Source of the DNA: a virus
Taxonomy: Duplodnaviria; Caudoviricetes
Virus record (IMG/VR): IMGVR_UViG_3300037424_001266
Span: 1 to 28,430 of that record
Length of the DNA stretch: 28,430 bases
Strand: one strand, 5' to 3'
Translations under genes and position numbers: made by a program
Notes under the pieces: generated by a model
The model's input: the letters and a program-made list of their open reading frames with translations, nothing else
Databases searched by the model: none
What the model was told of the DNA's origin: nothing
Part shown: positions 4,502 to 25,605 of the stretch, one piece after another
Layout: every line of letters starts with the position of its first letter
Position numbering within the stretch: position 1 is the stretch's first letter

Positions 4502-5050
4502 TTACCCCTTCCGGTTGGATTTCTTCCCCGGGACGGGTCCCGCGGGGTTCGTCGCCGCGGGCGCCTCTACCGGATGAGAGTCTACATAATCCGATCCTTC
4601 CTGCAAGGGTTTTTCTTCAAGGGGCATCCTGATATCGAAAAGCTCTCCCGGTACGTTGTCTTTCCCCTCCGGGAAGGGAACGATCACGGGCTCGGTCGGA
4701 TCTGAGATGAGAGCCCGGATTTCCGAGTCGGCCGGGGTAACCGGATCCTCGCCGGCCGGCGGCCGGCCGGTTACCTCTTCCGCGGCCGGGGTAACGGGAT
4801 CCCGCGGAGCTGCTCCTGGAGCCGTTACCCCTGCGGGGGGCACACCCTCGGGGAGTTCCGGAATCTCGATCCCGCCCTGGGGCACCGAGAAATCCGGAGG
4901 CGCCAGGGATTGCGCCGGGAGTTGCCCCGGCAGAAGGGCTTTCGTTACTGGATGGAACCTCCACGCGCCTTGCGTGATCCACCGTTCGCCAGTTGCAGTT
5001 TCGACGCCGATACCGGAAGGCTTATTGGGGTTGAAGATGATCGCCGCCAT
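4502..5050 (-). CDS. Pro/Ala-rich hypothetical protein (182 aa) carrying two GTAAC-N28-GTTAC elements
   Basis: ATG at 5050 preceded by AAGGAGG; shorter than the track ORF 4502..5143. Confidence 0.6.
   Translation of the reverse strand: MAAIIFNPNKPSGIGVETATGERWITQGAWRFHPVTKALLPGQLPAQSLAPPDFSVPQGGIEIPELPEGVPPAGVTAPGAAPRDPVTPAAEEVTGRPPAGEDPVTPADSEIRALISDPTEPVIVPFPEGKDNVPGELFDIRMPLEEKPLQEGSDYVDSHPVEAPAATNPAGPVPGKKSNRKG
4737..4774. repeat. GTAAC-N28-GTTAC element #1
   Basis: GGG GTAAC CGGATCCTCGCCGGCCGGCGGCCGGCCG GTTAC CTC. Confidence 0.95.
4791..4828. repeat. GTAAC-N28-GTTAC element #2 (16 nt after #1)
   Basis: GGG GTAAC GGGATCCCGCGGAGCTGCTCCTGGAGCC GTTAC CCC. Confidence 0.95.
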
Positions 5051-6582
5051 TTTCTGAATACCTCCTTCATCCTTGGGATGATATCTGATGGATCGTACTC
5101 CGCGGCACAAGCGGAAACCCTGAATTGCTCGTTTACCGGACATTCCTTGATCGAGAAGATCATCTTGTGGCAGGGCGAACAGGATTGCCGGGATTGGACG
5201 GAGTTATCGTTTATCCAATACTTGCAGAGATTCGCCCAGGACGAGTGCGACAGCATACAGATCTTCGGGGTATCGAAGCACCCCGCCATGTTCAGGACTC
5301 CCGTTTCCGGCCCGATCACCAGATCCGCGTATTTCACAGCGATCGCCGTGTTGCGGATCCCCCACCGGCCGGATCGGTGCATATAGTTCGGGTTGTCATC
5401 AGCCGCCAACTCCAGTAGTTTCTCCGCGTGGCCGCCCACGGTGATGAAAAGCGCCTCCGGGTTGATCCGTGCGAATTCAGCCATCGCCATAGCGGCGTAG
5501 GGGAATCGCTTGTGCGGCCCGGATCCCCCCAGGGCCCAGATCACCACGAACCGTCCCTCGAGGGTCTTTCTCCAGATCCGGGCTACGCCTTCCTCTTCAT
5601 CGGAGAAGAACATCTCCCCGTTTTCCCTGCGCCGGTCGATCCCCGCTACCTTCAAGGCGTGATCGTAATAGTTGACGTTCCCGAACTTCGCCCGCCGTTC
5701 GTCATCGGTTAAGTCGTACTCCGGGCTACCCTTGATCGACAGGAGAGCTTCTTCGAGCGTTCCGGAGAGGTTCACAACGCGATCGTAGCCCTTGGAGAGG
5801 GCTTTCCAGTAGCCGTTCAAATCCGCGTTCGGCACTTCATCCATCGCCTGATAGATGAACCGATCGACGTTCGGGTTGTGCCTGGCAATCTCCATGCCGT
5901 TATCTGAGGTATTGAACGTGACGTGATAGCCCTCTTCCTTGAGGGCTCGAAGCACGGGTGTTGCGATGATGGCGTCTCCGATGCCTCCGTACCGGATCAC
6001 CAGGGCTTTCTTTTGATCCGGCGCCGGCAAGGCGCGCCGGTCTACCGTGAGCCCCGGCACGGACGAGAGTTTTTTCAGCACCAGGTCGAACGAATACTCA
6101 TTGTCCTCCGCGTGGATCTCGTTGTGTAGGACTTCAAACGACGCGAATTCCCGCATGACTTCAAGGATCATCTCCGGGGTGAGATCGCTCTTGTGGTCCG
6201 GATTCGCTCCCGGATGGCCCACTCGCGGGTAAAGCTCCGCATGGGGGAGGTACAGCACCAGGTTTCCCCCTGGCCGGATCGTCCTCCACCATTCTTGAAG
6301 AAGTCCCGGAGGATCCTTGGCGTGTTCCAGGTAATGAGACGAGAAGATGAAATCGAATGTATCCGAGGCGAACAGCGTGAGCCCCCCTTCGAGGTCGATC
6401 GCAAAATCAGCTACCGAATCCGCTCCCTTCCCGATATCCAGGCCGATCGCCGTTTCCTTGATCTTCTTCGCTCCGCAAGCCAGGTCGAGCCCTTGGCCCT
6501 TGCAGAACTGGAGAAGCCGCGGCCGGCACTTCTCCACTTCCGGAACGTATGGATTCTCCTTGTCGATGGGTTTCCAGGTCAT
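4945..6582 (-). CDS. Class I SAM methyltransferase fused to a GT9 (heptosyltransferase-like) glycosyltransferase
   Basis: N-terminal GLDLACG..FDFIFSSHYLEH..WWRTIRPGGNLVLYLP. C-terminal IRYGGIGDAIIATPVLRALK..ADLVIGPETGVLNMAGCFDTPKI, plus a CSPC..C..C tail. Confidence 0.85.
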   Translation of the reverse strand: MTWKPIDKENPYVPEVEKCRPRLLQFCKGQGLDLACGAKKIKETAIGLDIGKGADSVADFAIDLEGGLTLFASDTFDFIFSSHYLEHAKDPPGLLQEWWRTIRPGGNLVLYLPHAELYPRVGHPGANPDHKSDLTPEMILEVMREFASFEVLHNEIHAEDNEYSFDLVLKKLSSVPGLTVDRRALPAPDQKKALVIRYGGIGDAIIATPVLRALKEEGYHVTFNTSDNGMEIARHNPNVDRFIYQAMDEVPNADLNGYWKALSKGYDRVVNLSGTLEEALLSIKGSPEYDLTDDERRAKFGNVNYYDHALKVAGIDRRRENGEMFFSDEEEGVARIWRKTLEGRFVVIWALGGSGPHKRFPYAAMAMAEFARINPEALFITVGGHAEKLLELAADDNPNYMHRSGRWGIRNTAIAVKYADLVIGPETGVLNMAGCFDTPKICMLSHSSWANLCKYWINDNSVQSRQSCSPCHKMIFSIKECPVNEQFRVSACAAEYDPSDIIPRMKEVFRKWRRSSSTPISLPVSASKLQLANGGSRKARGGSIQ

Positions 6583-6893
6583 ACGCTCCCCCCGATGAAC
6601 CGGATCGGCTTCCCGTGAATCTTCGCGTAGTTGATCTCACTTCGCGTCGATTCCCCGATGTACCCTCCAACGTCGAGGACAAGCACTTCATCTGCCAGGT
6701 CGATCTTCCGCTTGTGGAGTTCGTCGAGTTTGACCTTCTCTTCCGGCGTCGGGGTGTACTTATCTCCATCGGCGTGTCCGAACCACCCAACGGTGAGGAC
6801 GATGTTTCCGGCCATCGTCTCCTTGAAGTTTCGGTTGATGAATTCCCGCTTGAACCGCGTTGAGCCACAGAGGCACACGATTTTCGGTTTCAT
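6579..6893 (-). CDS. Nucleoside 2-deoxyribosyltransferase-like/DUF4406-like small protein
   Basis: MKPKIVCLCGSTRF..LDELHKRKIDLADEVLVLDVGGYIGESTRSEINYAKIHGKPI. ATG at 6893 overlaps the stop of the upstream gene (ATGA). Confidence 0.7.
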   Translation of the reverse strand: MKPKIVCLCGSTRFKREFINRNFKETMAGNIVLTVGWFGHADGDKYTPTPEEKVKLDELHKRKIDLADEVLVLDVGGYIGESTRSEINYAKIHGKPIRFIGGSV

Positions 6894-7579
6894 CGGGAGG
6901 CCGCCATCGTTACGAGATCCCGGCAGTAATCCGGGTTGCGGTTCGCCGCTTCGAGGTAATCCCACCCCTCCACTTTGTACCCGCACTTGTGGATCAAGGC
7001 CGAGAGGGACTTGAGGCCGTAGTAGTGAAGATGCTCCCCGGGCTTGTAGTGTCTCCATCCCATGATCGACCCCCGGGCGGGCGTGTTCATCAGCGGATCG
7101 ACGTTCGGCGTGAGGATCACCAGGAGCTTGGGATTCATCAGACGGATGAAATTCCGAGGGCTCTCCATGTGTTCGATCACATCGAAGGCGGTCACCACAT
7201 CCGGCCGGTCTATCACGTCCTTTTCCGGCCGGCAGTATTCCGAGAACGGGTTGATATCGAATCCGTGGAGTTCCACTCCCGGGAGGGCATGGGAGGACCG
7301 CAGGAAAGCTCCCGTGCCGGCGCCCACGTCCAAGAGGGTGATATGCCCGTTCATAAATCTCCGCAGGAATCCCCACCGGAAGGCCTCGATCTTCGCCCCG
7401 AGTTCCGTCTTGGCGAGGTTCCGGTAGTGTTCCAGGTACTTCTCGTCATACAGAGCCCTGTTGTTCGGGGCGTCGCACGTTACCAGGTTGCACGACGGGC
7501 ACCGAAATAGGCCAGGTGCGAATTTCACCATCGCGGTCCCGTCTGTATCGCATCGTCCGGTAAACCATGTCGATTGCAT
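6890..7579 (-). CDS. Class I SAM-dependent methyltransferase (Methyltransf_23-like) with N-terminal CxxC
   Basis: FRCPSCNL; LLDVGAGTGAFL; HGFDIN; DVVTAFDVIEHM; TPN; EHLHYY. Start uncertain (7579 has an upstream AGGAG; 7531 is the alternative). Confidence 0.8.
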   Translation of the reverse strand: MQSTWFTGRCDTDGTAMVKFAPGLFRCPSCNLVTCDAPNNRALYDEKYLEHYRNLAKTELGAKIEAFRWGFLRRFMNGHITLLDVGAGTGAFLRSSHALPGVELHGFDINPFSEYCRPEKDVIDRPDVVTAFDVIEHMESPRNFIRLMNPKLLVILTPNVDPLMNTPARGSIMGWRHYKPGEHLHYYGLKSLSALIHKCGYKVEGWDYLEAANRNPDYCRDLVTMAASR

Positions 7580-8522
7580 CAAGGATCGTCTCCTGTTGGA
7601 ATTTGTTGTTACAGACCGTTTCATCCGGCCCGACGTGAGGGTGGTAGCAATCCTCCGGTTCGTAAATCGCCCGAAGGCATGGGGAACAGTCGATTTGCGC
7701 TTGCAGGGAGAAATCGTTTCTTTGCCCCTCGGTGCATTGGAACACCGACGAGGACGTACAGAGCATCGTCTTGGGCGTTCCCCACATCCCCGCCGCGACC
7801 AGGAGTCCCGTCTCCGGTCCCAGGACGTAATCCGCGAACCGCGCCATGAGCATCACTTGACGGAAGGACGTCTGGAAGACCGGATAGACCCGGTGATCCC
7901 CATAGGAGAAGCTGTACTGCTTTTCGTTCGGACCCCCGGCCGGATAGAGGACCGCATCCGGGTAGAGGTCGAGGATCTTCCTCCCGATCTCCTTGGCGAA
8001 CGGAAACCTCTTCTGAGCGTTGGATCCCGAGACGGGCATCAGAACCACGAAATCATTACGGTGGATTTCCCTCCACCGTTGCGCCCATGCCAGTTCTTCC
8101 TCGGTGAACACCAAAGTTCCGCAATCCCCCAATTCCCGCACCGTGGAGTACCCCGCCACTACAAGCGGAACCGAATAGAAGCTCTCCCCCTTCACGAGTT
8201 TCCTTCGCGTTTCCACCGGCAGATGAAAAGCCTCGTTATCCCTCCCCGGGATCAAGGTCCCTTCGAGCGTATTCGAAAGATTCACGATTTCATCCGGGTT
8301 GACCGCCTCGATATCCTTATCCAGAATCGCTTGCCAGTCCTCCTTGGTAGCCGGATTGATGGCCAGGATCGACTTGAAGCGGTTGTCGCTCCCGAAGATA
8401 TCGAGCCCGCGGATTCCTGTATGGAGGTAGATTTCCTTCCCGTCTGCCAACATCCGGTCGATCACCGGAAGTAAATACAGCAGATCCCCGTAAGCTCCGT
8501 ACCTCAAGATCATCGACTTCAT
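7446..8522 (-). CDS. GT9-family glycosyltransferase
   Basis: LRYGAYGDLLYLLPVI; ADYVLGPETGLLVAAGMWGTPK; CSPC..C..C C-terminal motif. Paralogous to the GT9 domain at 4945..6582. Confidence 0.85.
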   Translation of the reverse strand: MKSMILRYGAYGDLLYLLPVIDRMLADGKEIYLHTGIRGLDIFGSDNRFKSILAINPATKEDWQAILDKDIEAVNPDEIVNLSNTLEGTLIPGRDNEAFHLPVETRRKLVKGESFYSVPLVVAGYSTVRELGDCGTLVFTEEELAWAQRWREIHRNDFVVLMPVSGSNAQKRFPFAKEIGRKILDLYPDAVLYPAGGPNEKQYSFSYGDHRVYPVFQTSFRQVMLMARFADYVLGPETGLLVAAGMWGTPKTMLCTSSSVFQCTEGQRNDFSLQAQIDCSPCLRAIYEPEDCYHPHVGPDETVCNNKFQQETILDAIDMVYRTMRYRRDRDGEIRTWPISVPVVQPGNVRRPEQQGSV

Positions 8523-8526: not shown

Positions 8527-8760
8527 TCACTCGTTCCGCGCGATCGAGGCGTTCGCCCACATGACGGCCTCTTCCAGAGCCGTAAGCGCCAAGGACCGCT
8601 CCCGGGACGGCGGGCAGTTCATCATGAGGACACCCGCATAGGCTTTCGCCAGATCCCGGATCTCGATGTACCGAGGCGCCTGATCTTCCTTCGGCGGGTG
8701 ATAGCTGAAATCCTTGTCCAACCGGCGAATCTCGTCATCAGATACCTTGTATTTCTCCAT
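8527..8760 (-). CDS. Acb2/Tad1-like hairpin protein (putative cyclic-nucleotide sponge, anti-defence)
   Basis: 77 aa from ATG 8760 (upstream GGAAGGGG): FSYHPP..RY..IR..CPPSRERSLALTALEEAVMWANASIAR. Resembles the Tad1 C-terminal helix as I recall it (SRENACALTHVEEALMW). Confidence 0.7.
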   Translation of the reverse strand: MEKYKVSDDEIRRLDKDFSYHPPKEDQAPRYIEIRDLAKAYAGVLMMNCPPSRERSLALTALEEAVMWANASIARNE

Positions 8761-9256: not shown

Positions 9257-9258
9257 GA

Positions 9259-11770: not shown

Positions 11771-13804
11771 TTATTGAACCGCGCCGCTGTGAATCCTCGA
11801 ACCGGCCGCCTTGAGAAGCTCCATCACCACGTTCGGATCCATCGGCGCGCCCTCTCCCGGAGGACCGGGCATCGGCGCCGCGGGCGGCACTCCTGGTGTA
11901 ACTGCGGGCCCGCCAGGTGGAGCTCCGGGCGTTACCCCAGGCCCCGGAGGAAGAGGCTGACCCGTTGCGGGGTCAATTCCCGGAGGGATGGGTTGACCCG
12001 TGACGGGATCCACGGTCCCCGGCGCCCCGGGGATGGCGGCCGGCATATCGAGGACGAGTTGATCCGGATTCGGCCAATCGAACGTATTGAAGAACCGCGT
12101 AAGGAATTCGTCCAGGTCGAGGCGTTGCAGGAGAGGCGGGATCTTGGCGAGGACTTCGATCGCCATGATGATATCCTGCCGATCCGCTTGCTTATCGAAG
12201 AAAGCCGAGAGCCCCCTCACCTTGATCGGGTACCGCTTGTTGAGGAAGGCGTACTTCTGAGCTTCCGGAAGATTCTCGATATCGAAGCCTTCCTGCCGGA
12301 AGATATCGTCCGTCTCGGGGTTCAGGAGCGGATCCATGAAGAATTGCACCGTCATATCCCGCGACACTTCCACGGACTCGATGACGCCGGATTTCTCGAT
12401 CGACGATGCGATGTTCTCGAAAGCCAGGGAGGAAGCCTCCGTCTTGCGGTTGACTTCCGTGGCCGTGACGTCTCGCCGGCCCTGCATCCCCTGGATGAAT
12501 TCCGTCCATCCGGTATAGTTCTGCACGGAGTTTTTCAGGAATTCGGCAAAGGAGAACCCCCCCTGCGGGATATCCCCTCCCTGCTGTTGATGAAACGCCT
12601 GTCCGAGGGGCCCCTTGGTCTTGAACATCTTCCCAGGGGTAAGCCCACCCTCGGCCTGTTGCGGATCCTTCAAGGCGTCGACGTTCACTTCGGACGGAGC
12701 CAGGAGTGCAAAGAGGGCCTTGTCCCCCATGATGTTTACGATGTTGTCCAGGGCGTTGATGATTGGACGGATGCCGTCGATCATGCCGGCGCCGATGCAT
12801 TGGAACAGGACCTTCAAGGGGTTGATGAACACATAGGGGTGTTTCCGTAGCCAGTACGGGGAGGGGGCGGGTTTCAGGAGCAGATACTTCTGGTTTGCAA
12901 CGATGAAGTACCCATCCTTTACGACGATTTTCCCCTTTTCATCGGTCACCGATCCCCAATAGGTGTGCAGGACCACTTCCCGGCGATACTTATTCTTCGG
13001 TTCCTTGATCTTGAGCATGAGAAGGCGCTGATTATCGGCTTCGGTGCGGGCGGCCGATCCGAAATCCTCTTTGACGAGGCGATTCAGTTCCTTTTTGTCC
13101 CAGGGGATCCCCTCCGCGTTTTCGATCAGGGTATGGAGTTGCGGCCTGGATTCCTCGATGATCCAGGAGCGATCGAGCGGGAAGTGAAGCAGGAGCGGAT
13201 TTACCACTTCGATCTTGAGCTTCGCCCGTTTCGTCGTTTCCTTGAGGAAATCGTGCTTCTGCACCACGGCCTTTCCGGTAGCGGGGTCGATCACCGGCTG
13301 TCCCGTGTTCGGATCCACAACGGGGATCGGGCCCCAGACTATCCGTGCATCCTCCACATTGACCGGGGAGAACCGTAGCGCGCCGATCATCACGGCCAGG
13401 GCAGACTCCACGCCTTCCTCGAATTTTTCGATGAATTCAGCCTCGTCCATATGGAAACGGACCTTCCGTGTGAACCCGCGGGCGAAGTTATCCATCATGT
13501 CCTTGATCGGCTGTCCGGTAACGGGATCCATCTTCTGCGGCGCGTCATCCTGCCGTTCCGGCGTGAATTCGAAGAACTTGTCGGACTTCATGAGGATCCG
13601 TTTCAGGAGCCCCGAGGCGCCCTTGATGGCCGGATAGACGGACGGAACGACGATCTTATGTTGCCAGTCCTTCTTCTTCGAGTAATCCCGGAAGGATCGG
13701 TAGCGGTCGTAGCACTCCATCTGCACCTTGCGGAACGGGCCGAAGGTATCCTCGGACTCCTTGAGACAGGCGTTCAGGAAGTTAACTACCTCTCGGTTCG
13801 TCAT
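11771..13804 (-). CDS. Portal protein
   Basis: 677 aa. Pattern YRS..K..WQ.KIVVP; DVTATEV; VRGLS; Pro/Gly-rich tail. Lies between terminase and scaffold. Confidence 0.85.
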   Translation of the reverse strand: MTNREVVNFLNACLKESEDTFGPFRKVQMECYDRYRSFRDYSKKKDWQHKIVVPSVYPAIKGASGLLKRILMKSDKFFEFTPERQDDAPQKMDPVTGQPIKDMMDNFARGFTRKVRFHMDEAEFIEKFEEGVESALAVMIGALRFSPVNVEDARIVWGPIPVVDPNTGQPVIDPATGKAVVQKHDFLKETTKRAKLKIEVVNPLLLHFPLDRSWIIEESRPQLHTLIENAEGIPWDKKELNRLVKEDFGSAARTEADNQRLLMLKIKEPKNKYRREVVLHTYWGSVTDEKGKIVVKDGYFIVANQKYLLLKPAPSPYWLRKHPYVFINPLKVLFQCIGAGMIDGIRPIINALDNIVNIMGDKALFALLAPSEVNVDALKDPQQAEGGLTPGKMFKTKGPLGQAFHQQQGGDIPQGGFSFAEFLKNSVQNYTGWTEFIQGMQGRRDVTATEVNRKTEASSLAFENIASSIEKSGVIESVEVSRDMTVQFFMDPLLNPETDDIFRQEGFDIENLPEAQKYAFLNKRYPIKVRGLSAFFDKQADRQDIIMAIEVLAKIPPLLQRLDLDEFLTRFFNTFDWPNPDQLVLDMPAAIPGAPGTVDPVTGQPIPPGIDPATGQPLPPGPGVTPGAPPGGPAVTPGVPPAAPMPGPPGEGAPMDPNVVMELLKAAGSRIHSGAVQ
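11898..11935. repeat. GTAAC-N28-GTTAC element #3 (portal 3' tail)
   Basis: GGT GTAAC TGCGGGCCCGCCAGGTGGAGCTCCGGGC GTTAC CCC. Confidence 0.9.
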
Positions 13805-14178
13805 CCTCGGGACCCTCCATAAGATCTCGGAACCTGGAAGATCTCCATCTCCGGCTTCGTACCGCCGCGGCCGTCCTTTTCGTGATAAAACCGCTTCAAG
13901 ACTGAGGACGTGAGGCGCAAGGTACGTTTCACCCGTGGATCCTCTATGTCGATCGCGCCGCCGACGCCGGCTTCCTTCACTGACCGCGGGACCTTATGGA
14001 CGCCCCCGCAATCCTGGCACTCGAAGATCTGCACGATCTGGTGAGAATGACGCCCATCGACGAAAGCCGTACCCTTGAATTCCATGAGGGTGTGCTCGCA
14101 ATCGAGGGGATCCTTCTGCCAGGGCGTTCCCAAGAGGGTCTGCTTCGGCTGACGTGCCAGGAATTCGGCCTTTTCCAT
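13801..14178 (-). CDS. Hypothetical Zn-ribbon protein
   Basis: 125 aa from ATG 14178 (AGGAG RBS): CEH...FECQDCG. Stop overlaps the portal ATG. The 459-aa track extension upstream is spurious. Confidence 0.65.
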   Translation of the reverse strand: MEKAEFLARQPKQTLLGTPWQKDPLDCEHTLMEFKGTAFVDGRHSHQIVQIFECQDCGGVHKVPRSVKEAGVGGAIDIEDPRVKRTLRLTSSVLKRFYHEKDGRGGTKPEMEIFQVPRSYGGSRG

Positions 14179-14189
14179 CGTCTCGCTCC

Positions 14190-15017
14190 TTACGCGCTCG
14201 GCGTCAGCGTCATCGCTGTACGCTCCGAGGAAGTATTGATCGTTGCGGCGACACGAGTGGCAGTCCCGGAGGGATCCTTGATCGTCGCCCCCGCCGCGGT
14301 AGTCACGCCGGCCAGGACGGCAAGGATGATCGAAATGGCCTGTTGCAGGGTGATTGTGCCCTCCGCTTCGACCACGGCCGCCTTGATGGCGTTGACGATC
14401 TCGGTGACGGCATCGGTCGCCAAAGAGGCCGCGTTGACCACAACCCCGTCCGTCCCGGTGTCCAAGAGGATGGCGGCCGTATCGTCCTTGATGGCGCCTA
14501 TCTCGGTATCGACGTACGCCGCGATCGTTACCAGATCGGCAGAGACAGACACACCCGCGGGGGCTCCCAGGCGGGCGAAGGCGTCTCCCGTCATGGCCGG
14601 CGCCGCGCTCCCCTTCCAGTTCACCACGTCGGCGTTGAGGTTCCCCGTGCCGAACATGGCATCCCACATCTGGGCCGAGATCACCATGAATTCGTGGAAC
14701 ACCGGGACGTGGTTCGCCGCGTCGGTGATCGTGAGGAAAAGGCGTCCGAGGAAGTTCACGTTCGCCGCGGTCAGTTCCAGTTGCATGAGCCCCGCGTCGT
14801 TGTTCGTGATGTAGTTGAGGTCGTTGTCCGTGGCCGAGGTCGCTCCGGTCACGTTGTCGAGGATGATCGTCGGGGCGTTCCCGTCGTCCGTGTCCTTGAT
14901 CGCGGTGATCCGCTCGTTGGTGATCGTGAGGGATCCCTCGATCGTCACCCCGTCCGTTTTGTCGTAGAAAGGGCCCACCGTGACGATTACGGCCGTGTTC
15001 GTTTTCAGAAACCTCAC
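14190..15017 (-). CDS. Putative virion structural protein
   Basis: GTG 15017 with GGAGG RBS, overlapping the upstream TGA. LKTNTAVIVTVGPFYDKTDGVT; Thr/Ala/Asp-rich. Confidence 0.65.
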   Translation of the reverse strand: MRFLKTNTAVIVTVGPFYDKTDGVTIEGSLTITNERITAIKDTDDGNAPTIILDNVTGATSATDNDLNYITNNDAGLMQLELTAANVNFLGRLFLTITDAANHVPVFHEFMVISAQMWDAMFGTGNLNADVVNWKGSAAPAMTGDAFARLGAPAGVSVSADLVTIAAYVDTEIGAIKDDTAAILLDTGTDGVVVNAASLATDAVTEIVNAIKAAVVEAEGTITLQQAISIILAVLAGVTTAAGATIKDPSGTATRVAATINTSSERTAMTLTPSA

Positions 15018-15676
15018 GCCGCCCACCTCCTGCGATATTGGGAGTTGACGATCGGAGCGGAAGAACCCCCCGCTTCTCCTGCGGGGGTAAGAAATATCCC
15101 AAGGCCCCCGACCATGACGAAAAACTGGTAGTCGAGAGTCTTGGCACCAGACGCTCCCGGGGAGACTTGGAGATCCGCACAGCAGTATTGCCCGTTGGAG
15201 TAATTGCGCTCAGTCAGGGACGTGGAAGTGAGGGTGGAGATGTTGTTCCCGGCCGTCATCTGAACGTAAGCCGCGCTGGCGCTCGTGGAAGTGATGGAAC
15301 CTGTGACAAAGGCCGCGTTCGTGGGTCCATACCCCGTGTAGGGCGTACCTTCCCACGGATCTCCGGTGGTAATGCACCCGGAAAACCGCTTCATAATTCC
15401 GGAACAGGAGTTACTGGTCGCCCTGGTCCAAGTGTATGACGCTCCCTCGCTCCCCCCGGCCCGGAGCCAATAGGAGTACCAGTACACGCCGCCCGTATTT
15501 ACCGTCGATCCTATTTGAACCCACCCCGCGGGTGGTGTTGGGGCTGTCGTATTGTTGATACAGAGAGTGCAAAGAAGAATATCGTTTTCGACCGTGTTGG
15601 CGGGTTTGGTGAAAACCATGTTCGTGCGAACACTATAATTTAATGTGCTCGCTTCTCCAACAAGACTAATCGACAT
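15014..15676 (-). CDS. Putative virion beta-sandwich protein
   Basis: 220 aa, Thr/Ser/Gly-rich (KPANTVENDILL..PTPPAGW..AGGSEGASYTWT), lower GC than flanks. Confidence 0.6.
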   Translation of the reverse strand: MSISLVGEASTLNYSVRTNMVFTKPANTVENDILLCTLCINNTTAPTPPAGWVQIGSTVNTGGVYWYSYWLRAGGSEGASYTWTRATSNSCSGIMKRFSGCITTGDPWEGTPYTGYGPTNAAFVTGSITSTSASAAYVQMTAGNNISTLTSTSLTERNYSNGQYCCADLQVSPGASGAKTLDYQFFVMVGGLGIFLTPAGEAGGSSAPIVNSQYRRRWAA

Positions 15677-15887: not shown

Positions 15888-16811
15888 TCAGGTAGCGTAG
15901 GATGACGAAATATCGGCAACCGGCCGCGGCCGGGGCCCCTGTTTCTTGATTTGGAAGATACGGGAAGCGACGTACTCGAGGGCGTTCATGATGTGCGAAT
16001 ACTCGTTCTTGTCGACCTCATCCGAGTAGATATCCTTCCCGATGACCTTCTTCCGGCGGTACCCGCCCGTAAAGGCGGTGATGATGAACCTCTCCCGCGG
16101 GTCGACCTGTAGGAAGTTGACGCCATCCTCTTCCGACCGTTGGAGGGCCATCTCCATCGCCTCGAAACGGCCCTGCCAGGTGACCTCGCCCGTCTGTACC
16201 GAGAGTCCGAACCCGCCGCCGTCCTTCAAAGGCACGTTCGGATCCCCGTTGAGAATGTCGAAGCACTTCCGTTCGTCGGTCTGGGACCGCTGATTGCCGG
16301 CCGGATCCGCGTAGTCGAGCCAGGTGTGCCCGGGATAGGCCAGGTTGCAGTAGTTGATGACCTCGGTTCCGAACCGGCTGATGCCCATAAATTGATCGTT
16401 CGGCACGAACAGGGAGGGAAAGACGTTCCAATGCGGCGCCGGCATGAAGATCCGTTGTGTGATGGCACAGGCAGGCGTACCGCCGAAGTCCCACCCGCGG
16501 ATCATGGGAATGTTCTTGACGGCACGGAGGGGAGTCGGGGCGACGTGGCGCTGTTCGTTGAACGTCTTGTAGATCGGCAACCCCTCGCGGATCGAGAAGT
16601 CGATCTCCTGCTCCTTGCGCCATATCTGATTCTCCATACCGCCGGCGAGGCCCTTCGTCATCGTATCTCGCCATGCCTTGCCGGCCGGCGTGGCGGGGTC
16701 CCTGGCAGGGAAAGCGGAGTAATGGAGACGGATGGAGCGGATACCCGATTCGGTGGTCCATTTCTGGATTCCCTTGAGGGGAGGCAGGAAGGATCCCGCC
16801 GCGTTGCTCAT
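15888..16811 (-). CDS. terL: Terminase large subunit, lid and nuclease (RNase H-like) half
   Basis: ATG 16811 (ATGA overlap, GGAGG RBS). LHYSA; WRKEQEIDF; IYKTFNEQRHV; IRGWDFG; YADPAGNQRSQTD; SHIMNALEY. Confidence 0.85.
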   Translation of the reverse strand: MSNAAGSFLPPLKGIQKWTTESGIRSIRLHYSAFPARDPATPAGKAWRDTMTKGLAGGMENQIWRKEQEIDFSIREGLPIYKTFNEQRHVAPTPLRAVKNIPMIRGWDFGGTPACAITQRIFMPAPHWNVFPSLFVPNDQFMGISRFGTEVINYCNLAYPGHTWLDYADPAGNQRSQTDERKCFDILNGDPNVPLKDGGGFGLSVQTGEVTWQGRFEAMEMALQRSEEDGVNFLQVDPRERFIITAFTGGYRRKKVIGKDIYSDEVDKNEYSHIMNALEYVASRIFQIKKQGPRPRPVADISSSYAT

Positions 16812-17122
16812 CCTCTTACCTCCGGAAGCTCGGTTTGAATCGAGGCGATCGCGGCGTCCAGGGCAGACACGGACTTGCGAAGGTAGTCGATAGAAACCCC
16901 GATGTAGGCTTCGGTCTGGGGGAACCTCACGGGAGGCGGGATGCCTGGATCGAGTCCCGCAAGGACGCCCAGGACCTCCTGACGGGCCTGGATGCAATCG
17001 CCCATGACTTCCTTCCAGGTGGACGGGGTAACCGCCGGCGCCGGCGCTGCGGCCTCGGGCGTTACCTCAGGGGTAACGGGATCCGGGACCTGGCCGGCGA
17101 TCGCCGTTACCTTACCAGACAA
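16808..17122 (-). CDS. Hypothetical protein between terminase halves; 5' end built from two GTAAC-N28-GTTAC elements
   Basis: 104 aa track ORF (TTG start, uncertain) with a helical C-terminal half. Stop overlaps the nuclease ATG. Confidence 0.55.
   Translation of the reverse strand: MSGKVTAIAGQVPDPVTPEVTPEAAAPAPAVTPSTWKEVMGDCIQARQEVLGVLAGLDPGIPPPVRFPQTEAYIGVSIDYLRKSVSALDAAIASIQTELPEVRG
17028..17065. repeat. GTAAC-N28-GTTAC element #4
   Basis: GGG GTAAC CGCCGGCGCCGGCGCTGCGGCCTCGGGC GTTAC CTC. Confidence 0.95.
17073..17110. repeat. GTAAC-N28-GTTAC element #5 (7 nt after #4)
   Basis: GGG GTAAC GGGATCCGGGACCTGGCCGGCGATCGCC GTTAC CTT. Confidence 0.95.
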
Positions 17123-17231
17123 TTTGAGCCACCGAGAGGAAGAAGATACCGGCGCCCACCAGGGGCCCGAACTGTATCCCGAGAAGGATGCATCCCACGG
17201 CCAAGAAGAGGAAACGGGCGTGGTCGCTCAT
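17112..17231 (-). CDS. 39-aa hydrophobic membrane peptide
   Basis: Manual translation MSDHARFLFLAVGCILLGIQFGPLVGAGIFFLSVAQIVW*. ATG overlaps the terminase ATPase TGA. Confidence 0.55.
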   Translation of the reverse strand: MSDHARFLFLAVGCILLGIQFGPLVGAGIFFLSVAQIVW

Positions 17232-17971
17232 GATGCGAAGGCGTAGGAGCTTGTCGGATCGGTCATGAATCCCCCCATTCGTCCGAACTCGGAAGGATCG
17301 GCCGAGGAAACGGCGACGATCTTCCGGCAGGAAGGTTTCGCGGCACGGAAAGCTTGAAGGAAGAACGGCTGAAAGGCCGCCTCATCGGAGAACAGCCCGG
17401 ATCCCGTGTAGGACCGGATGGTGTCCGAGCCCTGGGGGATGCCCCAGATCTTTGAACCGTTGGAGTAGTGTTTCTGCCCGTAGGACGGCTTCGGACCCTT
17501 GGGATCCTGCATCCACCAGGGAAGGCGGGACTCGATGAAGTCGATCCGGGCGCTCCCGGGCTCCTTGTTGAACACCAGATTCGCGGCGTCCTCTTCCTTC
17601 TTCGACTGGATGAAGAGAAGCTGACCGCCGTAGAAGCGAGCCCACCAACAGAAATACGCGCACATGAACCAGGTGACCATCAGTTGCCGGCTCTTGCCGA
17701 TGAATACGAGCGGGTTGTTGTGGACCTCGTAGAGGACGTCCAGAAGGGCAAGCTCTCGCGGGAAGGGCTTGATCGTCTCGATCATCGAGTATTCGTCCTT
17801 CGTCCAGACGTATTTGAGCGGGTGGAACAGCCAGTACGCGCAGGACCGCTTGCACTTCTCAAGCTCGATGACGCGCGAGGCGGGATCCTCGTCCAGACCG
17901 GCGCCGTAGTGGAACCATTGCTCGGCCGTCCAATCAGGATATAGCGCGTCGAACGGACCCTTGGCGGGCAC
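17228..17971 (-). CDS. terL: Terminase large subunit, ATPase half
   Basis: IKPFP (adenine motif); FIGKSRQLMVTW (Walker A); LFSDEAAF (Walker B); IVAVSSA (coupling motif). Ends about 20 aa later. Confidence 0.85.
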   Translation of the reverse strand: MPAKGPFDALYPDWTAEQWFHYGAGLDEDPASRVIELEKCKRSCAYWLFHPLKYVWTKDEYSMIETIKPFPRELALLDVLYEVHNNPLVFIGKSRQLMVTWFMCAYFCWWARFYGGQLLFIQSKKEEDAANLVFNKEPGSARIDFIESRLPWWMQDPKGPKPSYGQKHYSNGSKIWGIPQGSDTIRSYTGSGLFSDEAAFQPFFLQAFRAAKPSCRKIVAVSSADPSEFGRMGGFMTDPTSSYAFAS

Positions 17972-18506
17972 GGGCGGCCTCCTCGATTGCCTGGTTGATC
18001 TCTTCGTCCGTCATGGAGCCCACCTTCCGACGAAGCTCGTTGTACCGGGATTGCCGGCGCAAGGCCAGTTCGTCGACCTGTGTTTTCGCGGCCTGGTCGC
18101 CGGTGACGCCGATCAGGAAGCCCATCTGGGCCATGAGGCGGTGGTAGAACTTCCGAACATTCCAATCCGGCAAGAGGGTGTCGACGTGGGATACCTCTTT
18201 CGTGTCCTTGTTGACCACAACGCGGATCCTGGTTGCGGTGATCCCCTCGAGGATGGCCCGGAGTAGCACCTGGTCCGAAAGCCCGTTGGCGGCCATCAGG
18301 ACGCGCAATTGAGGCTGTATGCGCTCCAGGAGGCGGGCGCCGATCAGGCCGGCCTCGTGGGGATCCGTGCCCTTGCGGGCTATGCCGGATTCGAGGGCCG
18401 CGGCGCCAGGATCGGCGTTTCGAAGGTAGATCCGGAGAAATTCACGTTCCTTGCGGGTGAGGTTGACGGGCTCGCCGTCCTGGTCGATGGGGAGATCCTT
18501 GCTCAT
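17934..18506 (-). CDS. terS: Terminase small subunit
   Basis: From ATG 18506: LTRKEREFLRIYLRNADPGAAALESG is an HTH typical of TerS. Directly upstream of TerL. Confidence 0.75.
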   Translation of the reverse strand: MSKDLPIDQDGEPVNLTRKEREFLRIYLRNADPGAAALESGIARKGTDPHEAGLIGARLLERIQPQLRVLMAANGLSDQVLLRAILEGITATRIRVVVNKDTKEVSHVDTLLPDWNVRKFYHRLMAQMGFLIGVTGDQAAKTQVDELALRRQSRYNELRRKVGSMTDEEINQAIEEAARARQGSVRRAIS

Positions 18507-18514
18507 GGGAACGG

Positions 18515-18544
18515 ACGGTACAGGAACCGACAAAAGGCTGTCAA
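18515..18544 (-). promoter_or_regulatory. Possible sigma70 promoter for the late operon (near-leaderless)
   Basis: Minus strand TTGACA-N18-TACCGT, 8 nt before the terS ATG, which has no visible SD. Confidence 0.35.
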
Positions 18545-18712
18545 GAAAATAATTCAAGGCGTTCAGGCACTTATACCGCCACAGCATAAACGAGGATGAG
18601 GGTCTTTTACATCAACGACAAGGAAAATCTACTTCTCCTGTGACTGACTTGAGGACTCCGCTTTCCATTCCTCGAAGCCTTTTTCAAACCGATACTGCAC
18701 GTCAAAAACGAG

Positions 18713-18753
18713 TTATCCACAGAAAAAGGGACTTATCCACAGGGTTATCCACA
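18713..18753 (+). promoter_or_regulatory. Three perfect DnaA boxes (putative origin)
   Basis: TTATCCACA at 18713-18721, 18733-18741 and 18745-18753, same orientation, in an intergenic region. Confidence 0.85.
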
Positions 18754-18899
18754 GGATGGGGTGGTTCCTCTCTCAGACTCTCACCTCCCTTCACACCCGC
18801 CGAAGGCGCCACTATTTAAAGCCTCTTATCTTATTTCTATGTTCCTTTAATTCTTGCGTTCGCAGTTCGGGGCCAAACGGGCGAACCCGAAAAGGCCCC

Positions 18900-18945
18900 A
18901 AAGGGACGATCCCGTTTTGCCGTAAAGGGACGATCCCGTTTTGCC
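18900..18945. repeat. 22-bp direct repeat x2 (iteron-like)
   Basis: AAAGGGACGATCCCGTTTTGCC at 18900-18921 and 18924-18945, adjacent to an AT-rich tract (~18810-18855). Confidence 0.8.
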
Positions 18946-18964: not shown

Positions 18965-19423
18965 TTAGTCGTTCTCGCGGATCCCACATAGCATATTTAA
19001 TTTCTTAATCACGGGTCGAATCATGGGTTTATTGAGGCCATGTAGGTGTTTTGCGAGGGGCTTATAGATTTTACTCTGCGGTAAAAAGTGCAGGATCTTG
19101 ACCGCCATATTGACCTGTTGAGTGTTCCTATAGTCCTCGATCGGGTTCAATCCCAGGGTGGGATCGAGCATGATGAGGCCCTTCGATTCGTCTTTATACA
19201 CAAGCTGTAATTCGACCAGGCTTGCCAGGGGTTTTTGAAGATCCTCCGGTTTCCACGATAAATCAGCGCAAAGGTAGTAATCCGGGCACTTGAACACCCC
19301 GACCATGTTCGAATGTTGCGAAATCAGGATCTCAAGGAAAAGGTTGTAGCGGTCGGCGCACAGGTCGTAGGGTTGGAGGATCTGTCGAAGGTTCGTTGGC
19401 ACCCATTGTCTCCGCGGATTCAT
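18965..19423 (-). CDS. Phage replication initiator-like protein (N-terminal wHTH only)
   Basis: LFLEILISQHSNMVGVFKCPDYYLCADLSW..DLQKPLASL..LVYKD resembles replisome-organiser N-termini. Sits beside the iterons and DnaA boxes. Confidence 0.6.
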   Translation of the reverse strand: MNPRRQWVPTNLRQILQPYDLCADRYNLFLEILISQHSNMVGVFKCPDYYLCADLSWKPEDLQKPLASLVELQLVYKDESKGLIMLDPTLGLNPIEDYRNTQQVNMAVKILHFLPQSKIYKPLAKHLHGLNKPMIRPVIKKLNMLCGIREND

Positions 19424-19772: not shown

Positions 19773-19961
19773 ATGGCCTACATTGTGAAAGCCGAAACAC
19801 AGTCTGGAAAGGTCCGGTACGCGGGCATCAGCGACGGCCCGCCGGTGAAGGACAAGGGCGAAGCTCATGCCTTCTTCGACCGCGGAGAAGCGGAAACCGT
19901 GGCACGGAAGATCCGAAGCGTCATCCCGGCGACCTGTACGGTCACCGTGGAAACCGTCTGA
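19773..19961 (+). CDS. Hypothetical early protein
   Basis: 62 aa with GGAGG RBS; first gene after the rightward promoter. Confidence 0.65.
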   Translation: MAYIVKAETQSGKVRYAGISDGPPVKDKGEAHAFFDRGEAETVARKIRSVIPATCTVTVETV

Positions 19962-20205: not shown

Positions 20206-20703
20206 ATGGCAAAGCTCAAGTACCACCTGGTAGTGGCGCAGGGTTACCCCGCGATCGACGCGGCGGCCAAGCTCGATTCGAAAGTAAACAACCTCATGGA
20301 GGCAGGATGGGAACCCTCGATGCCTCCGGGAATGTTCGTCGGCCCCTTGACGGACCCGGGCGGCCGCCTCGATTCGGAATTCTACACAGCCTTTCAGACG
20401 CTTCTCTGGAATCCCGCAAACCAGAATCCCTTCACAGAGAGAAGGGTAACCGCCGGCGGCGGCCGCGGCGAGGATCCGGTTACCCCGGTCGACCACGAAA
20501 TCCAGGTATTCAATCGTGACACTCAGCTTTGGAAAGACGCCTGGGCGGCCCTCGAGTATGAAGTTGGCGATATCTCGATCTGGATGTATATGTCCTCCAA
20601 GCTCATTAACCTCGGGCTTTCCTGGGAACACTCCTTCAAGCACATCGAAACCCGGACGTATCGAACCGTCACAACGCCGCGGCAGCCACAAAAGGAGGGG
20701 TAA
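20206..20703 (+). CDS. Hypothetical protein containing element #6 as a central linker
   Basis: 165 aa with AAGGAGG RBS. N-terminal KVNNLMEAGWEP is DUF1737-like. Confidence 0.65.
   Translation: MAKLKYHLVVAQGYPAIDAAAKLDSKVNNLMEAGWEPSMPPGMFVGPLTDPGGRLDSEFYTAFQTLLWNPANQNPFTERRVTAGGGRGEDPVTPVDHEIQVFNRDTQLWKDAWAALEYEVGDISIWMYMSSKLINLGLSWEHSFKHIETRTYRTVTTPRQPQKEG
20446..20483. repeat. GTAAC-N28-GTTAC element #6
   Basis: AGG GTAAC CGCCGGCGGCGGCCGCGGCGAGGATCCG GTTAC CCC. Confidence 0.95.
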
Positions 20704-21696: not shown

Positions 21697-22341
21697 ATGC
21701 CAAGGCTACCAAGGCCCAGGGGCGCCGCGATCGACCTGGTTCATACCTGGATCCGGCGCCAGGTCCTCACCCTCAAGCGGGAGATCGCCGGCCTTGAGAA
21801 GAAGGGCATCCTCCTGGCATACCCTCATTTCAAGAAGGGGACCAGGAGGATGTACCTACTCGAACCCACCAACGGCGGGAAGCGGAAATACCACTACATC
21901 GGGGGTAACGAGATATCCCAGAAGTTCGCCCTCGAGAAGATCGAGCGTTACCACAAGGTTCATGTGCTGTGCTTGATGCTCGGAGAAGTAGAGCGATGGC
22001 TCTCGGACAATAAAAGCTCCTTGGATCGCCTCCTGGACAATTTCATGATGACGAACAGGGCCGCCGCGCAAGCCATCAAGGACGGGGAGAAGTTCACCTG
22101 GAAGCACACCACGATCGAAAACGGGGTAACGCCGCGGAGCTGCTCGAGGCCTCGGCCGGTTACCCAGGATCCCGACGAGGAACGGGCCTGTAGGATCTGC
22201 GGTTGCACGGAATTCACCCCATGCCCAGGGGGATGCTTCTGGGTGGAAGAGGATTTATGCTCGAGTCCGGAGTGCGTCAAGAAGGGTAACAAGGCCCCGG
22301 GATCCGGATCTCGATCGCGTTACCCATCGAAAGGGAGGTAA
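21697..22341 (+). CDS. Putative DNA-binding protein (basic 3-strand sheet plus helices) with C-terminal Cys-rich finger; contains elements #7 and #8
   Basis: GILLAYPHFKKGTRRMYLLEPTNGGKRKYHYIGG flanked by helices; CRICGCTEFTPCPGGCFWVEEDLCSSPEC; AGGAGG RBS. Confidence 0.55.
   Translation: MPRLPRPRGAAIDLVHTWIRRQVLTLKREIAGLEKKGILLAYPHFKKGTRRMYLLEPTNGGKRKYHYIGGNEISQKFALEKIERYHKVHVLCLMLGEVERWLSDNKSSLDRLLDNFMMTNRAAAQAIKDGEKFTWKHTTIENGVTPRSCSRPRPVTQDPDEERACRICGCTEFTPCPGGCFWVEEDLCSSPECVKKGNKAPGSGSRSRYPSKGR
22126..22163. repeat. GTAAC-N28-GTTAC element #7
   Basis: GGG GTAAC GCCGCGGAGCTGCTCGAGGCCTCGGCCG GTTAC CCA. Confidence 0.95.
22286..22323. repeat. GTAAC-N28-GTTAC element #8 (different reading frame from #7)
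   Basis: AGG GTAAC AAGGCCCCGGGATCCGGATCTCGATCGC GTTAC CCA. Confidence 0.95.
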
Positions 22342-22345: not shown

Positions 22346-22735
22346 ATGGCCTTCTGGTACAACCGTTGGACGCTTTCCGGCCGCGTAGTGAAGGATCCCG
22401 GGCCCCCTCGGTATCTTCCATCCGGCCAGCCTCAACTGGATTTCATGATCGCCAACAGCCGGCCTTCGGCCGGGAAAGGGACCACACAAACGGAACAGGT
22501 ATCTTTCTTTGAAATCGTAACCCGCGGCCGTCAGGCCGATGCCTGTGCGGAACATCTCCGGAAGGGCTCTCCCGTCTTTATCGAAGGGGAGGCCATGCAG
22601 ATGGCCTATCCGGCATCCGGCAACGCCCCCATCCGGAAGCGGGTCGTTCTCCGAGCCCGCATGGTCTGGTTTCTCGCACCGGGGATAAACATGACGGCCG
22701 CGGAGGACCCGAGCGGGGTGGAGGTTCCGGAATAA
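22346..22735 (+). CDS. ssb: Single-stranded DNA-binding protein
   Basis: YNRWTLSGRVVKDP..RYLPSG..F.IANSR..FFEIVTRGRQADACAEHLRKGSPVFIEG: SSB OB-fold. Confidence 0.85.
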   Translation: MAFWYNRWTLSGRVVKDPGPPRYLPSGQPQLDFMIANSRPSAGKGTTQTEQVSFFEIVTRGRQADACAEHLRKGSPVFIEGEAMQMAYPASGNAPIRKRVVLRARMVWFLAPGINMTAAEDPSGVEVPE

Positions 22736-23659: not shown

Positions 23660-23664
23660 TCTTA

Positions 23665-24383: not shown

Positions 24384-24922
24384 TCCCTCACACCGTCCAT
24401 ATTTCCCTGCTGTTCCCGGCCGCCGTCGCCGGCGGGATTCTCACCCTTCTCCTGTTGACCTTTTTCAAGGAGGGCCCAGACGAGGGGGAGTACCTTTCCA
24501 GGATCCACGATCTTGAGTGTCGCCTCGCATCCGAACACCACAAGAAAAACGCCTATAAGACGGCCTACGACTCCCTGTGCAGGGCTCCCAGGTACGTCGA
24601 CGTAGCAGGGGAAGGGGCCCAAAGGATCGTCAAGGAGCGAATCCGGCAGAAGGTTTCGGAGGGATGGACTCCGGAGCATGACGCGGGGCACATGGAAGGT
24701 CAGCTATCCGTCGCCGCCGCCTGTTACGCGATCCACGGAGTAAGAATCGACTATACTCCGGTTTCCGTCGAAATGGCCTCCGGTGGTGACGCATGGCCCT
24801 GGTCTTTGAAGTGGGACAAGCGGGAGAAGCATGAACGGATGCGGCGCCTGGAGATTGCCGGCGCCCTGATCGCCGCGGAGATCGACCGCCTGGTATCCAA
24901 CCCCTTACCCGATGGCCGCTAA
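24350..24922 (+). CDS. Hydrophobic N-terminus plus conserved phage domain (ERxRQ..EGWTPEHD..AAACYA..WPW..AGALIAAEIDRL)
   Basis: Recognisable widespread phage domain of unknown function at the C-terminus. Start uncertain. Confidence 0.65.
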   Translation: MPKTRRRYILLIPHTVHISLLFPAAVAGGILTLLLLTFFKEGPDEGEYLSRIHDLECRLASEHHKKNAYKTAYDSLCRAPRYVDVAGEGAQRIVKERIRQKVSEGWTPEHDAGHMEGQLSVAAACYAIHGVRIDYTPVSVEMASGGDAWPWSLKWDKREKHERMRRLEIAGALIAAEIDRLVSNPLPDGR

Positions 24923-24943
24923 GGCCGAGAAGGAGGTAGCACA

Positions 24944-25486
24944 TTGAACCCATACGAACCAGGCAACCGTCCGCGCTGTATCGTCTGCCTCGAGGAACTG
25001 GCCCCGGCACCTTCCGAGCGAGACGGGGAACCGACCTATTCCGGTTTCCTGCCCTGTCCCGATCATCCCAAGGCCGCCGCTCTCTACAAAGACGAGGTAA
25101 CCGGATCCCCGACGTCGCCGGCGATCGCCGTTACCCCTCATCTCTCCGTTGGTACGTCCTCGAAGCTCCACCACCTGAAAACCTGGCCCCGGTGGTTCGT
25201 TCCCGCCTGGGCCGGCCTCAAGCCGTTCGAGGTCCGGAAGAACGACCGAGGCTTCATGGCCGGTGATGCCGTGATCCTCGAGGAATGGGATCCCAACAGG
25301 CCGTGCAGGGGCGTAGACGGCGCCTGTAAGGACGTTTGCATCTGCAAGTACACCGGCCGTCAGATCCAGGGAAAGATCACCTACGTCCTGCCAGGAGGCG
25401 ATATAAGCGGCCTTCCCGGCGCCGGGGTGAAGGGTAGTTGGTGTGTTTTCGGGTATCAGACGATTTCGAGGGTAGTTTCCCAATAA
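24944..25486 (+). CDS. ASCH/DUF3850-domain protein with N-terminal Cys motif; element #9 forms the linker
   Basis: HHLKTWPRWF..GLKPFEVRKNDRGFMAGDAVILEEWD..YTGR..ITYVL; AAGGAGG RBS with TTG start. Confidence 0.75.
   Translation: MNPYEPGNRPRCIVCLEELAPAPSERDGEPTYSGFLPCPDHPKAAALYKDEVTGSPTSPAIAVTPHLSVGTSSKLHHLKTWPRWFVPAWAGLKPFEVRKNDRGFMAGDAVILEEWDPNRPCRGVDGACKDVCICKYTGRQIQGKITYVLPGGDISGLPGAGVKGSWCVFGYQTISRVVSQ
25097..25134. repeat. GTAAC-N28-GTTAC element #9
   Basis: GAG GTAAC CGGATCCCCGACGTCGCCGGCGATCGCC GTTAC CCC. Confidence 0.95.
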
Positions 25487-25522
25487 ACGGCGCGTCAGGA
25501 GGCGCCAGGATCGACGATCTCG

Positions 25523-25553
25523 AACCCCCGGGGACTATCCCCCGGGGGTTTTT
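25523..25553 (+). terminator. Rho-independent terminator ending the early operon
   Basis: AACCCCCGGGG-ACTATC-CCCCGGGGGTT followed by TTT, between convergent genes. Confidence 0.8.
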
Positions 25554-25567
25554 CCGTCTTTTACGGG

Positions 25568-25605
25568 GTAACGGGATCCCGACCTGGCCAGCTCGATCGT
25601 GTTAC
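25568..25605. repeat. GTAAC-N28-GTTAC element #10 (mostly intergenic; supplies the stop codon of 25602..25994)
   Basis: GGG GTAAC GGGATCCCGACCTGGCCAGCTCGATCGT GTTAC CCA. Confidence 0.95.

Follow-up and report, generated by a model that had tools for sequence, protein, structure and literature searches.

The AimR dimer of phage SPbeta, from the SPbeta/phi3T arbitrium system, binds 6-bp inverted repeats that lie 25 bp apart, with its heads 75-90 Å apart (PMC6458997), and the p4 dimer of phage phi29 contacts guanines 25 bp apart and reads the spacer between them indirectly (PMC1904284). Dispersed intragenic sites are described for cluster A mycobacteriophages, where repressor sites called stoperators, 26 of them in one study, block both initiation and elongation (PMC9283540). 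Here we describe an inverted repeat, GTAAC-N28-GTTAC, that occurs ten times in the entire virus record IMGVR_UViG_3300037424_001266 (28,430 nt; hereafter, the window), whose gene content (portal, capsid, adaptor, terminase, holin, and single-stranded DNA-binding protein, SSB) is that of a podovirus-like phage. An interpretation made from these letters alone (the sequence-only reading) recognized no described phage system with such geometry, which was incorrect, since AimR (PMC6458997) and phi29 p4 (PMC1904284) are precedents. We propose, giving the whole account about an even chance, that the sites would be operators of o214, an autoregulated dimeric repressor encoded by open reading frame (ORF) 21697-22341, and that they would have spread as stoperator-like roadblocks.

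The proposed system shares with AimR a phage dimer, perfect 6-bp inverted repeats, and a long spacer (25 bp for AimR and 28 bp here). However, AimR combines a helix-turn-helix (HTH) with a tetratricopeptide repeat (TPR) peptide receptor, acts as an activator at few sites, and tolerates changed spacer length (PMC6458997), whereas the candidate here is a 135-residue beta-sheet and coiled-coil protein with a spacer of strictly 28 bp (27, 28, or 38 bp at homologues) and at least 13 sites that are mostly intragenic. Members of the AimR group are HTH-TPR receptors of the RRNPP family with an aimP peptide gene beside them. The TPR/RRNPP family had no match among the ORFs scanned, and o214 has a helix-sheet-helix layout, which places it outside the AimR group. 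Like p4, o214 would be an elongated phage dimer on two short inverted half-sites, which are 25 bp apart for p4; by contrast, p4 uses an N-hook at four promoter sites with A-tract spacers (PMC1904284), whereas the spacers here are 79% GC, with AA and TT scarce, and are dispersed in genes. As with stoperators, many sites of one phage protein would be distributed over the genome, and numerous sites within and between genes, ten of them in the window, were indeed found. Stoperators differ in that they are 13 bp long and asymmetric, and the repressor that binds them is a monomer carrying two HTH-type domains (PMC9283540); neither an asymmetric 13-bp site nor an HTH was found here, where 40-bp symmetric sites would form the roadblock.

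A dispersed inverted repeat with a fixed spacer

All ten sites listed in the sequence-only reading are present (Table 1). When GTAAC/GTTAC pairs were counted in the window at spacings of 0 to 60, ten matches fell at n = 28, one at n = 37, and none at any other spacing, which is the sharp peak that the earlier interpretation had predicted, and 100 dinucleotide shuffles of the window gave no matches. Redrawing synonymous codons while keeping the proteins fixed (genome usage, 5,000 draws) yielded a mean of 0.2 sites and a maximum of 3 in the six carrier genes, compared to 9 observed. Thus, the constraint acts on DNA rather than on protein, as had been claimed. VT-x9-VT is the reading at eight sites; a different frame is used at 22286, and the site at 25568 falls outside the listed genes, in agreement with the description of sites 8 and 10 as out of frame and mostly intergenic. 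The peak recurred in related phages: with ≤1 mismatch allowed, 172 kb of overlapping element-positive contigs contained 52 matches at n = 28 and ≤7 at every other spacing, and 115 kb of element-negative relatives contained 1 match at n = 28.

The anatomy of the element was derived from 61 distinct spacers (122 half-sites) at about 14 loci, which are not independent of each other. The true arm is 6 bp, GGTAAC, with G before GTAAC in 120 of the 122 halves and C never at the two preceding positions. The spacers average 79% GC and almost lack AA, TT, and TA; the GC-richness had been noticed before, and the palindromes and the purged words treated below had been missed. The spacers contain 169 six-mer palindromes, whereas their dinucleotide shuffles contain 72 ± 7. 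In 77 of the 122 halves, compared to 11% of GC-matched windows, spacer position 3 is the first base of a 4-bp palindrome (GATC, 46; CCGG, 17; CGCG, 7; GGCC, 6; TCGA, 1). End-to-end pairing of the 61 spacers was not above expectation, which speaks against a hairpin or cruciform.

The element is restricted to a single sub-clade of an uncultured podovirus-like phage. Among 12 relatives picked by capsid protein, without bias (84-90% identity), n = 28 sites are present in 4 and absent in 8, and among whole records, G001 has 4 sites, G003 has 5, and G002, G004, and G005 have none. For those capsid relatives with a terminase in view, both members with the window's own terminase type (84-92% identity) have sites, compared to none of the eight with the other type (55-62%). 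A metagenome scan at n = 28 returned 60 distinct loci, of which 40 are homologous to the phage group and 20 are unrelated; each unrelated locus has one site, and all loci with ≥2 sites belong to the phage group. Three further sites in contig L136 beyond the window bring the count to at least 13 in about 45 kb. Five bacterial genomes contained 1 site match altogether, and a spacer-27 scan of genome contigs, which serves solely as a chance control, gave 11 scattered single matches. A GTTGC-N27 repeat in SopranoGao (L202-L204) was considered as an analog and rejected, because it reads as two tandem N7 sites; this phage has an operator-like palindrome, GTTGC-N7-GCAAC, at 6 places. A dispersed short-spacer palindrome with GTGCGACA-N3 arms, likewise operator-like, occurs at 8-12 places in MT835532 (L216-L217).

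Within the phage group, elements occupy Pro/Ala linkers. The sequence-only reading had proposed to look for clean indels in alignments of homologous proteins; relative to empty relatives, elements are either extra sequence or a replacement. Elements multiply by tandem duplication, as in sites 1 and 2 (a 54-bp unit), and by copying between unrelated loci. In relative L182, a site that lies in another gene has a spacer matching that of portal site 3 at 26 of 28 positions, and an o214 site spacer matches that of a site in the ORF between the terminase genes at 25 of 28, compared to ≤21 of 28 for shuffled spacers. Across orthologs, the spacer of site 7 is 95% conserved and its flanks 71%; at other sites with orthologs, spacer variability is about equal to that of the flanks. 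The small ORF 16808-17122, which carries sites 4 and 5, is absent from element-negative relatives. We read ORF 15888-16997 as the second terminase half; the large terminase is apparently split into two genes (15888-17971, minus strand), between which the site-bearing small ORF is inserted in element-positive phages, and the halves abut in four of five aligned element-negative ones.

A candidate binding protein whose gene carries sites

o214 is conserved in element-positive contigs, contains sites 7 and 8, and is probably the protein that binds the sites. In an AlphaFold2 model of residues 1-135 (pLDDT 95), a helix (8-36) is followed by three strands (42-69) and a 61-residue helix (72-132). The predicted head is a basic three-stranded sheet on a long helix, with a 'GKRKxxYxG' strand and no HTH. 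Language-model features link o214 to DUF6788 clusters (score 0.90), though Pfam DUF6788 matches only 2 of 52 family members, weakly (E 0.03). Fold matches to AP2 (6sy0; Foldseek probability 0.84, E 0.39), and to arm-type integrase domains (Mx8 integrase, Foldseek probability 0.96, E 0.1; 3jtz, VIA Z 4.1, rmsd 2.4, 50 aligned, head model pLDDT 62) were weak, none of them significant, and a search with the whole model returned generic helical hairpins only. The head of o214 has the beta-beta-beta-alpha order and the basic strand of DUF6788, AP2, and arm-type integrase domains, but it is set into a long helical hairpin. The conserved residues of the family (G37, P57, R63, G69, A78, and R84) form no evident catalytic motif.

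The o214 family comprises 51 clusters at 50% identity. Among the best five of 50 distant representatives (41-46% identity), four end in VT-x9-VT; none of the remaining 45 does, and VT-x(3-19)-VT is found in none of the rest. Further relatives of o214 were found neither in viral contigs nor in cultured phages, a search of the viral contigs did not return the DNA of P0015, and the family profile matched 0 of 251 genomes of a second phylum. The lone n = 37 GTAAC/GTTAC pair of the window lies in the o214 coding region (21905-21951) and recurs in several relatives; it is probably kept by protein conservation, though its spacing is near that of the N38 form seen at the homologues described below. 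The 62-residue product of o62 (19773-19961, plus strand), the first early ORF, is 95-100% identical across relatives, and its neighbors are 60-85% identical; o62 was dropped as a lead, with only 2 homologous clusters and no family match.

The family profile was also searched in the phylum of Geomonas, which we take to be Desulfobacterota, where it matched 1 of 401 genomes, and then in the order of that match, where it matched 5 of 401 genomes with 10 loci. These homologues are 28-32% identical to o214 and lie in other mobile elements. The first (G363; 32% identity over 94 residues) has GGGTAC-N28-GTACCC both upstream and downstream of the gene and an N38 copy in the gene's 3' end; its 3.7-Mb genome contains 4 matches in all, 3 of them flanking the gene. 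Using a degenerate arm, GG[GT][GTA]AC-Nn-GT[ACT][AC]CC with n = 15-59, that was devised after the first loci had been viewed, we found that all 15 matches in the 10 loci fall at n = 27 (5), 28 (3), or 38 (7). Fourteen of the 15 lie ≤250 bp from the gene, and 9 of the 10 loci have at least one; shuffles of the loci gave 1.3 matches overall and 0.1 at n = 27, 28, or 38. Because six of the loci are copies within one genome, these represent about four independent contexts. In five loci, a site lies 53 bp upstream of the start codon. Sites are not dispersed over the homologues' chromosomes but number 1-3 per homologue, at the gene.

Open frames read by eye indicate that G363 and G723 are probably integrated inovirus-like prophages in which the gene lies upstream of a Rep-like gene, and a similar reading suggests that tailed prophage copies are present in G767. 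The cassette is common to G723 and G767, with 62% protein identity and a DNA match over 1365-1910 of 3.3 kb, but its surroundings are not. In G767:C1 (L232, L235-L239), there are six o214-like cassette matches, several of them broken or interrupted by transposase-like open frames. Since sites bracket divergent homologues at 27, 28, or 38 bp, gene and site move as a pair, with spacing following helical phase. The comparison shows this linkage to persist where the proteins have diverged by about 70% and where the surrounding mobile elements are unrelated. The dimeric protein with widely separated heads that the sequence-only reading had raised as one possibility is supported by a candidate gene that carries the sites and by homologues that are flanked by related sites.

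Purged words and the DarB-like protein

Many short words are avoided in these phages, and some of the avoided words occur inside the elements. Outside the elements, in five pooled and partly overlapping contigs (105 kb), GCWGC occurs 3 times compared to 61.5 expected and CCAGC 4 times compared to 122.5 expected, and ATCGAT, CCATGG, CTGCAG, GGTCTC, CACGTG, and GAGCTC do not occur at all. The 61 spacers themselves contain 23 copies of GCWGC and 7 of CCAGC. Counted per contig, 16 of 24 (G/C)CAGC lie in 1,064 bp of elements, with 7 in 47.5 kb of outside GC-rich DNA; this word is present in only 15 of 28 elements, and copying between loci inflates the count. The avoidance suggests that the purged words are restriction targets. 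A general decoy array of host restriction sites was rejected, because most other purged words are also missing from the spacers. The refuge effect was not clearly repeated at the Desulfobacterota loci, where CCAGG occurs at 0.7-1.3 of expectation.

In the window and its relatives, >25 restriction-like four- to seven-mers occur at <0.2 of expectation, and the set is not the same in all relatives. Thus G002, L079, L082, L083, and L086 purge AGCT, which the element-positive phages do not, and L088 avoids fewer of these words. Two origins of the 28-bp spacing in restriction enzymes were rejected. The cut arithmetic of Type IIS or MspJI-like enzymes (12 + 16 = 28) is numerology only. The collision geometry of Type ISP enzymes does not account for n = 28 either, because their head-to-head sites function from 5 bp upward (PMC4666363), so that nothing singles out 28.

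Element-positive phages encode a DarB-like virion methylase-helicase of about 3,700 residues (PHROG 10089), which was the initial suspect as binder of the sites. DarB of phage P1 is a virion protein that acts in cis (PMC5512222); the phages studied here encode a DarB-like protein and their element touches restriction-site avoidance, but no dispersed cis site for DarB appeared in the text consulted, and two close relatives that bear DarB lack the element. Element-negative G002 lacks the methylase-helicase block of about 2,050 residues, and element-negative G004 and G005 retain the DarB block at 65-73% identity. Neither element-negative relatives nor DarB phages have a comparable fixed-spacing motif. 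The element, or any other dispersed repeat with a wide spacer, was found in 0 of 10 distant DarB phages and in 0 of 2 close DarB-bearing relatives (partial contigs). With G004, G005, and the ten distant phages bearing it without sites, the DarB-like protein fits less well as the binder than o214.

Proposed mechanism and alternatives

In the mechanism that we propose, o214 would dimerize through its helix of about 60 residues (about 90 Å) and present one beta-sheet head to each arm. Both arms would be read on one DNA face, with arm centers 34 bp (about 115 Å) apart, and the step from 27/28 to 38 bp, about 10 bp, would correspond to one helical turn. The ancestral unit may have been a portable cassette of site, gene, and further site or sites, in which the site at -53 would mediate autoregulation and 3' sites would face the next gene, which is the SSB gene here and a Rep-like gene in two inovirus-like prophages. 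Selection would then have multiplied the site in the present lineage, to at least 13 per approximately 45 kb, by duplication and by copying into protein linkers, and bound dimers would act as symmetric transcription roadblocks in the manner of mycobacteriophage stoperators. Autoregulation is suggested by the linkage of sites to the regulator gene across lineages (two sites in o214, four homologue tails, and 9 of 10 loci). We rate repression or roadblock as the job of the element slightly below an even prospect.

Several observations weigh against this account. No fold match for o214 was significant, and the arms differ, being GGTAAC here and GGG[T/G/A]AC at the homologues, for which the degenerate pattern was post hoc and 6 of 10 loci are copies from a single genome. 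A site is missing at homologue L233, and no peptide trace of one is seen in 46 of 50 distant representatives, although sites might fall outside the reading frame. In the present phage, no site lies upstream of o214, which is part of an early operon, unlike a classic immunity gene, and the element-negative contigs end short of the o214 region. Finally, a plain repressor leaves the palindrome-rich spacers and the purged words enclosed in them unaccounted for. The o214-site system is likely to be a wide-spaced operator with an uncharacterized candidate regulator family, combined with a restriction-site refuge.

That refuge is the starting point of a rather unlikely alternative, in which bound o214 or a DarB-like protein covers the 28 bp so that restriction sites survive or are displayed, and the element serves defense instead of gene control. 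Such a shield would fit the purging of restriction-like words outside the elements, the concentration of (G/C)CAGC inside them, the palindromes at spacer position 3, and the DarB-like protein of element-positive phages, which would enter the cell with the DNA and whose methylase-helicase block is lacking in G002. However, most purged 6-mers are absent from the spacers, the word count carries the limits given above, the effect was not clearly repeated at the Desulfobacterota loci, DarB-bearing phages near and distant lack the repeat, and an early protein such as o214 would be missing at DNA entry. We also consider it unlikely that a portable gene-plus-site cassette encodes a small coiled-coil protein that clamps three or four helical turns of DNA and hides them from host restriction enzymes, with multiplication in the present lineage having created protected palindrome-rich patches genome-wide that display restriction or methylation targets. 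Such a sequence-addressed DNA shield would be a cis-acting anti-defense class not found in our searches. Shielding could be a by-product of the operator function.

Genome organization or inheritance, in which o214 dimers would bind sites and bridge them, so that a phage genome maintained outside the chromosome is compacted, tethered, or segregated, is doubtful. matS and parS are names for sites of this kind, and the symmetric sites spread over early and late genes and the long coiled coil would suit bridging; KfrA coiled-coil proteins reportedly help in plasmid maintenance. The element-positive contigs yielded no integrase, and the stretch at 18713-18945, with three DnaA-box-like 9-mers and a 22-mer repeat, has plasmid-like origin features. 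But no ParA-like gene was found, and no ParA/ParB or SMC partner was detected among the ORFs scanned (some small ORFs were unscanned and the contigs are incomplete). Moreover, the homologues in apparent integrated prophages have 1-3 sites, all beside the gene and one over the promoter and ribosome-binding-site (RBS) zone, which is an operator layout and argues against the partition or condensation suggested in the sequence-only reading. As for the recombination or insertion sites that it had also suggested, whole elements are copied between loci. We find it improbable, however, that these are recombination cassettes or a selfish mini-element, with arms as crossover or end signals, palindromic end blocks as exchange regions, and self-spread. 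Spacers with 25-26 of 28 identical positions at non-homologous loci with unrelated flanks, the swapping of eight-base end blocks, the extra sequence relative to empty relatives, and the movement of the gene-plus-sites unit between unrelated mobile elements would all be expected of such a unit, yet neither a recombinase or transposase nor a catalytic motif in the conserved residues was evident, no duplication of target sites is apparent, the copying is accounted for by ordinary gene conversion among repeats, and orthologous spacers hold one orientation at most loci. REP/RAYT, MITE, and attC elements have a hairpin or conserved interior, target duplication, and a cognate nuclease; the present element, with no end-to-end pairing, a variable interior, and no recombinase found, was rejected as a member of these types. 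A role of the repeat in protein (VT-x9-VT as a glycosylation or cleavage signal) or as an RNA or single-stranded DNA hairpin is very improbable: eight of nine coding sites are in the VT frame and glycosyltransferase and sugar-kinase genes are present, but the codon redraw and the pairing test largely refute these roles, and the off-frame site and the site outside genes also count against them.

If the operator account is correct, it would provide a first candidate target site for an uncharacterized DUF6788-like mobile-element family, with a helical-phase rule of 27/28 or 38 bp, and a second, unrelated route to stoperator-like control. Inovirus-like prophages and tailed ones would be linked by a small regulatory cassette that moves between them, and in one phage lineage the operator would have been multiplied within structural genes. 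If, as the 16 of 24 purged words suggest, binding of the protein also keeps restriction enzymes off their targets, the system would represent a new principle of anti-restriction and a compact means of guarding any selected 28 bp against cutting. Our literature searches found nothing relevant on the element or the DUF6788 family, with subscription papers outside their coverage.

Other features of the window

Table 1. Positions of the repeat sites, the candidate binder, and associated genes (window coordinates unless a contig is named).
Feature	Position	Strand	Remarks
Site 1	4736..4775		GGTAAC-N28-GTTACC, in Pro/Ala linker of ORF 4502-5143(-)
Site 2	4790..4829		Spacer contains GCTGC and GAGCTG, words purged elsewhere in genome
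Site 3	11897..11936		Left arm TGTAAC; in C-terminal tail of portal protein
Site 4	17027..17066		In small ORF 16808-17122, between terminase gene 17228-17971 and ORF 15888-16997
Site 5	17072..17111		In tandem with site 4, 45 bp apart
Site 6	20445..20484		In early ORF 20206-20703(+)
Site 7	22125..22164		Within o214
Site 8	22285..22324		Near 3' terminus of o214, read in other frame; immediately before SSB gene
Site 9	25096..25135		In DUF3850 ORF 24944-25486(+)
Site 10	25567..25606		Between early and late gene blocks, which converge
o214, candidate cognate DNA-binding protein	21697..22341	+	3' tail largely made of sites 7 and 8
SSB gene	22346..22735	+	Next gene after o214 and site 8; may be a regulated target
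DarB-like protein	L136:7364-15781; G003:73-8328; G002:20323-25305		GGDEF-like stretch, adenine methylase (NVPF motif), SNF2 helicase; G002 lacks methylase-helicase block

The interval 18713-18945, flanked by a DnaD-like loader gene (18965-19423) on one side and ORF 17934-18587 on the other, contains three TTATCCACA 9-mers, which we take to be DnaA-box-like, and a twice-repeated 22-mer. This interval looks like a plasmid-type origin, and ORF 17934-18587 looks like a small terminase gene. An Acb2/Tad1 hairpin-domain protein, of an anti-defense sponge family, is encoded among the head genes (8527-8760, minus strand). A methyltransferase-glycosyltransferase cluster lies in the late region of the window (4945-8522, minus strand), and G003 has heptose-pathway-like SIS, cytidylyltransferase, and PfkB genes at 12678-15314. 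These sugar-gene clusters possibly serve virion or surface glycosylation.

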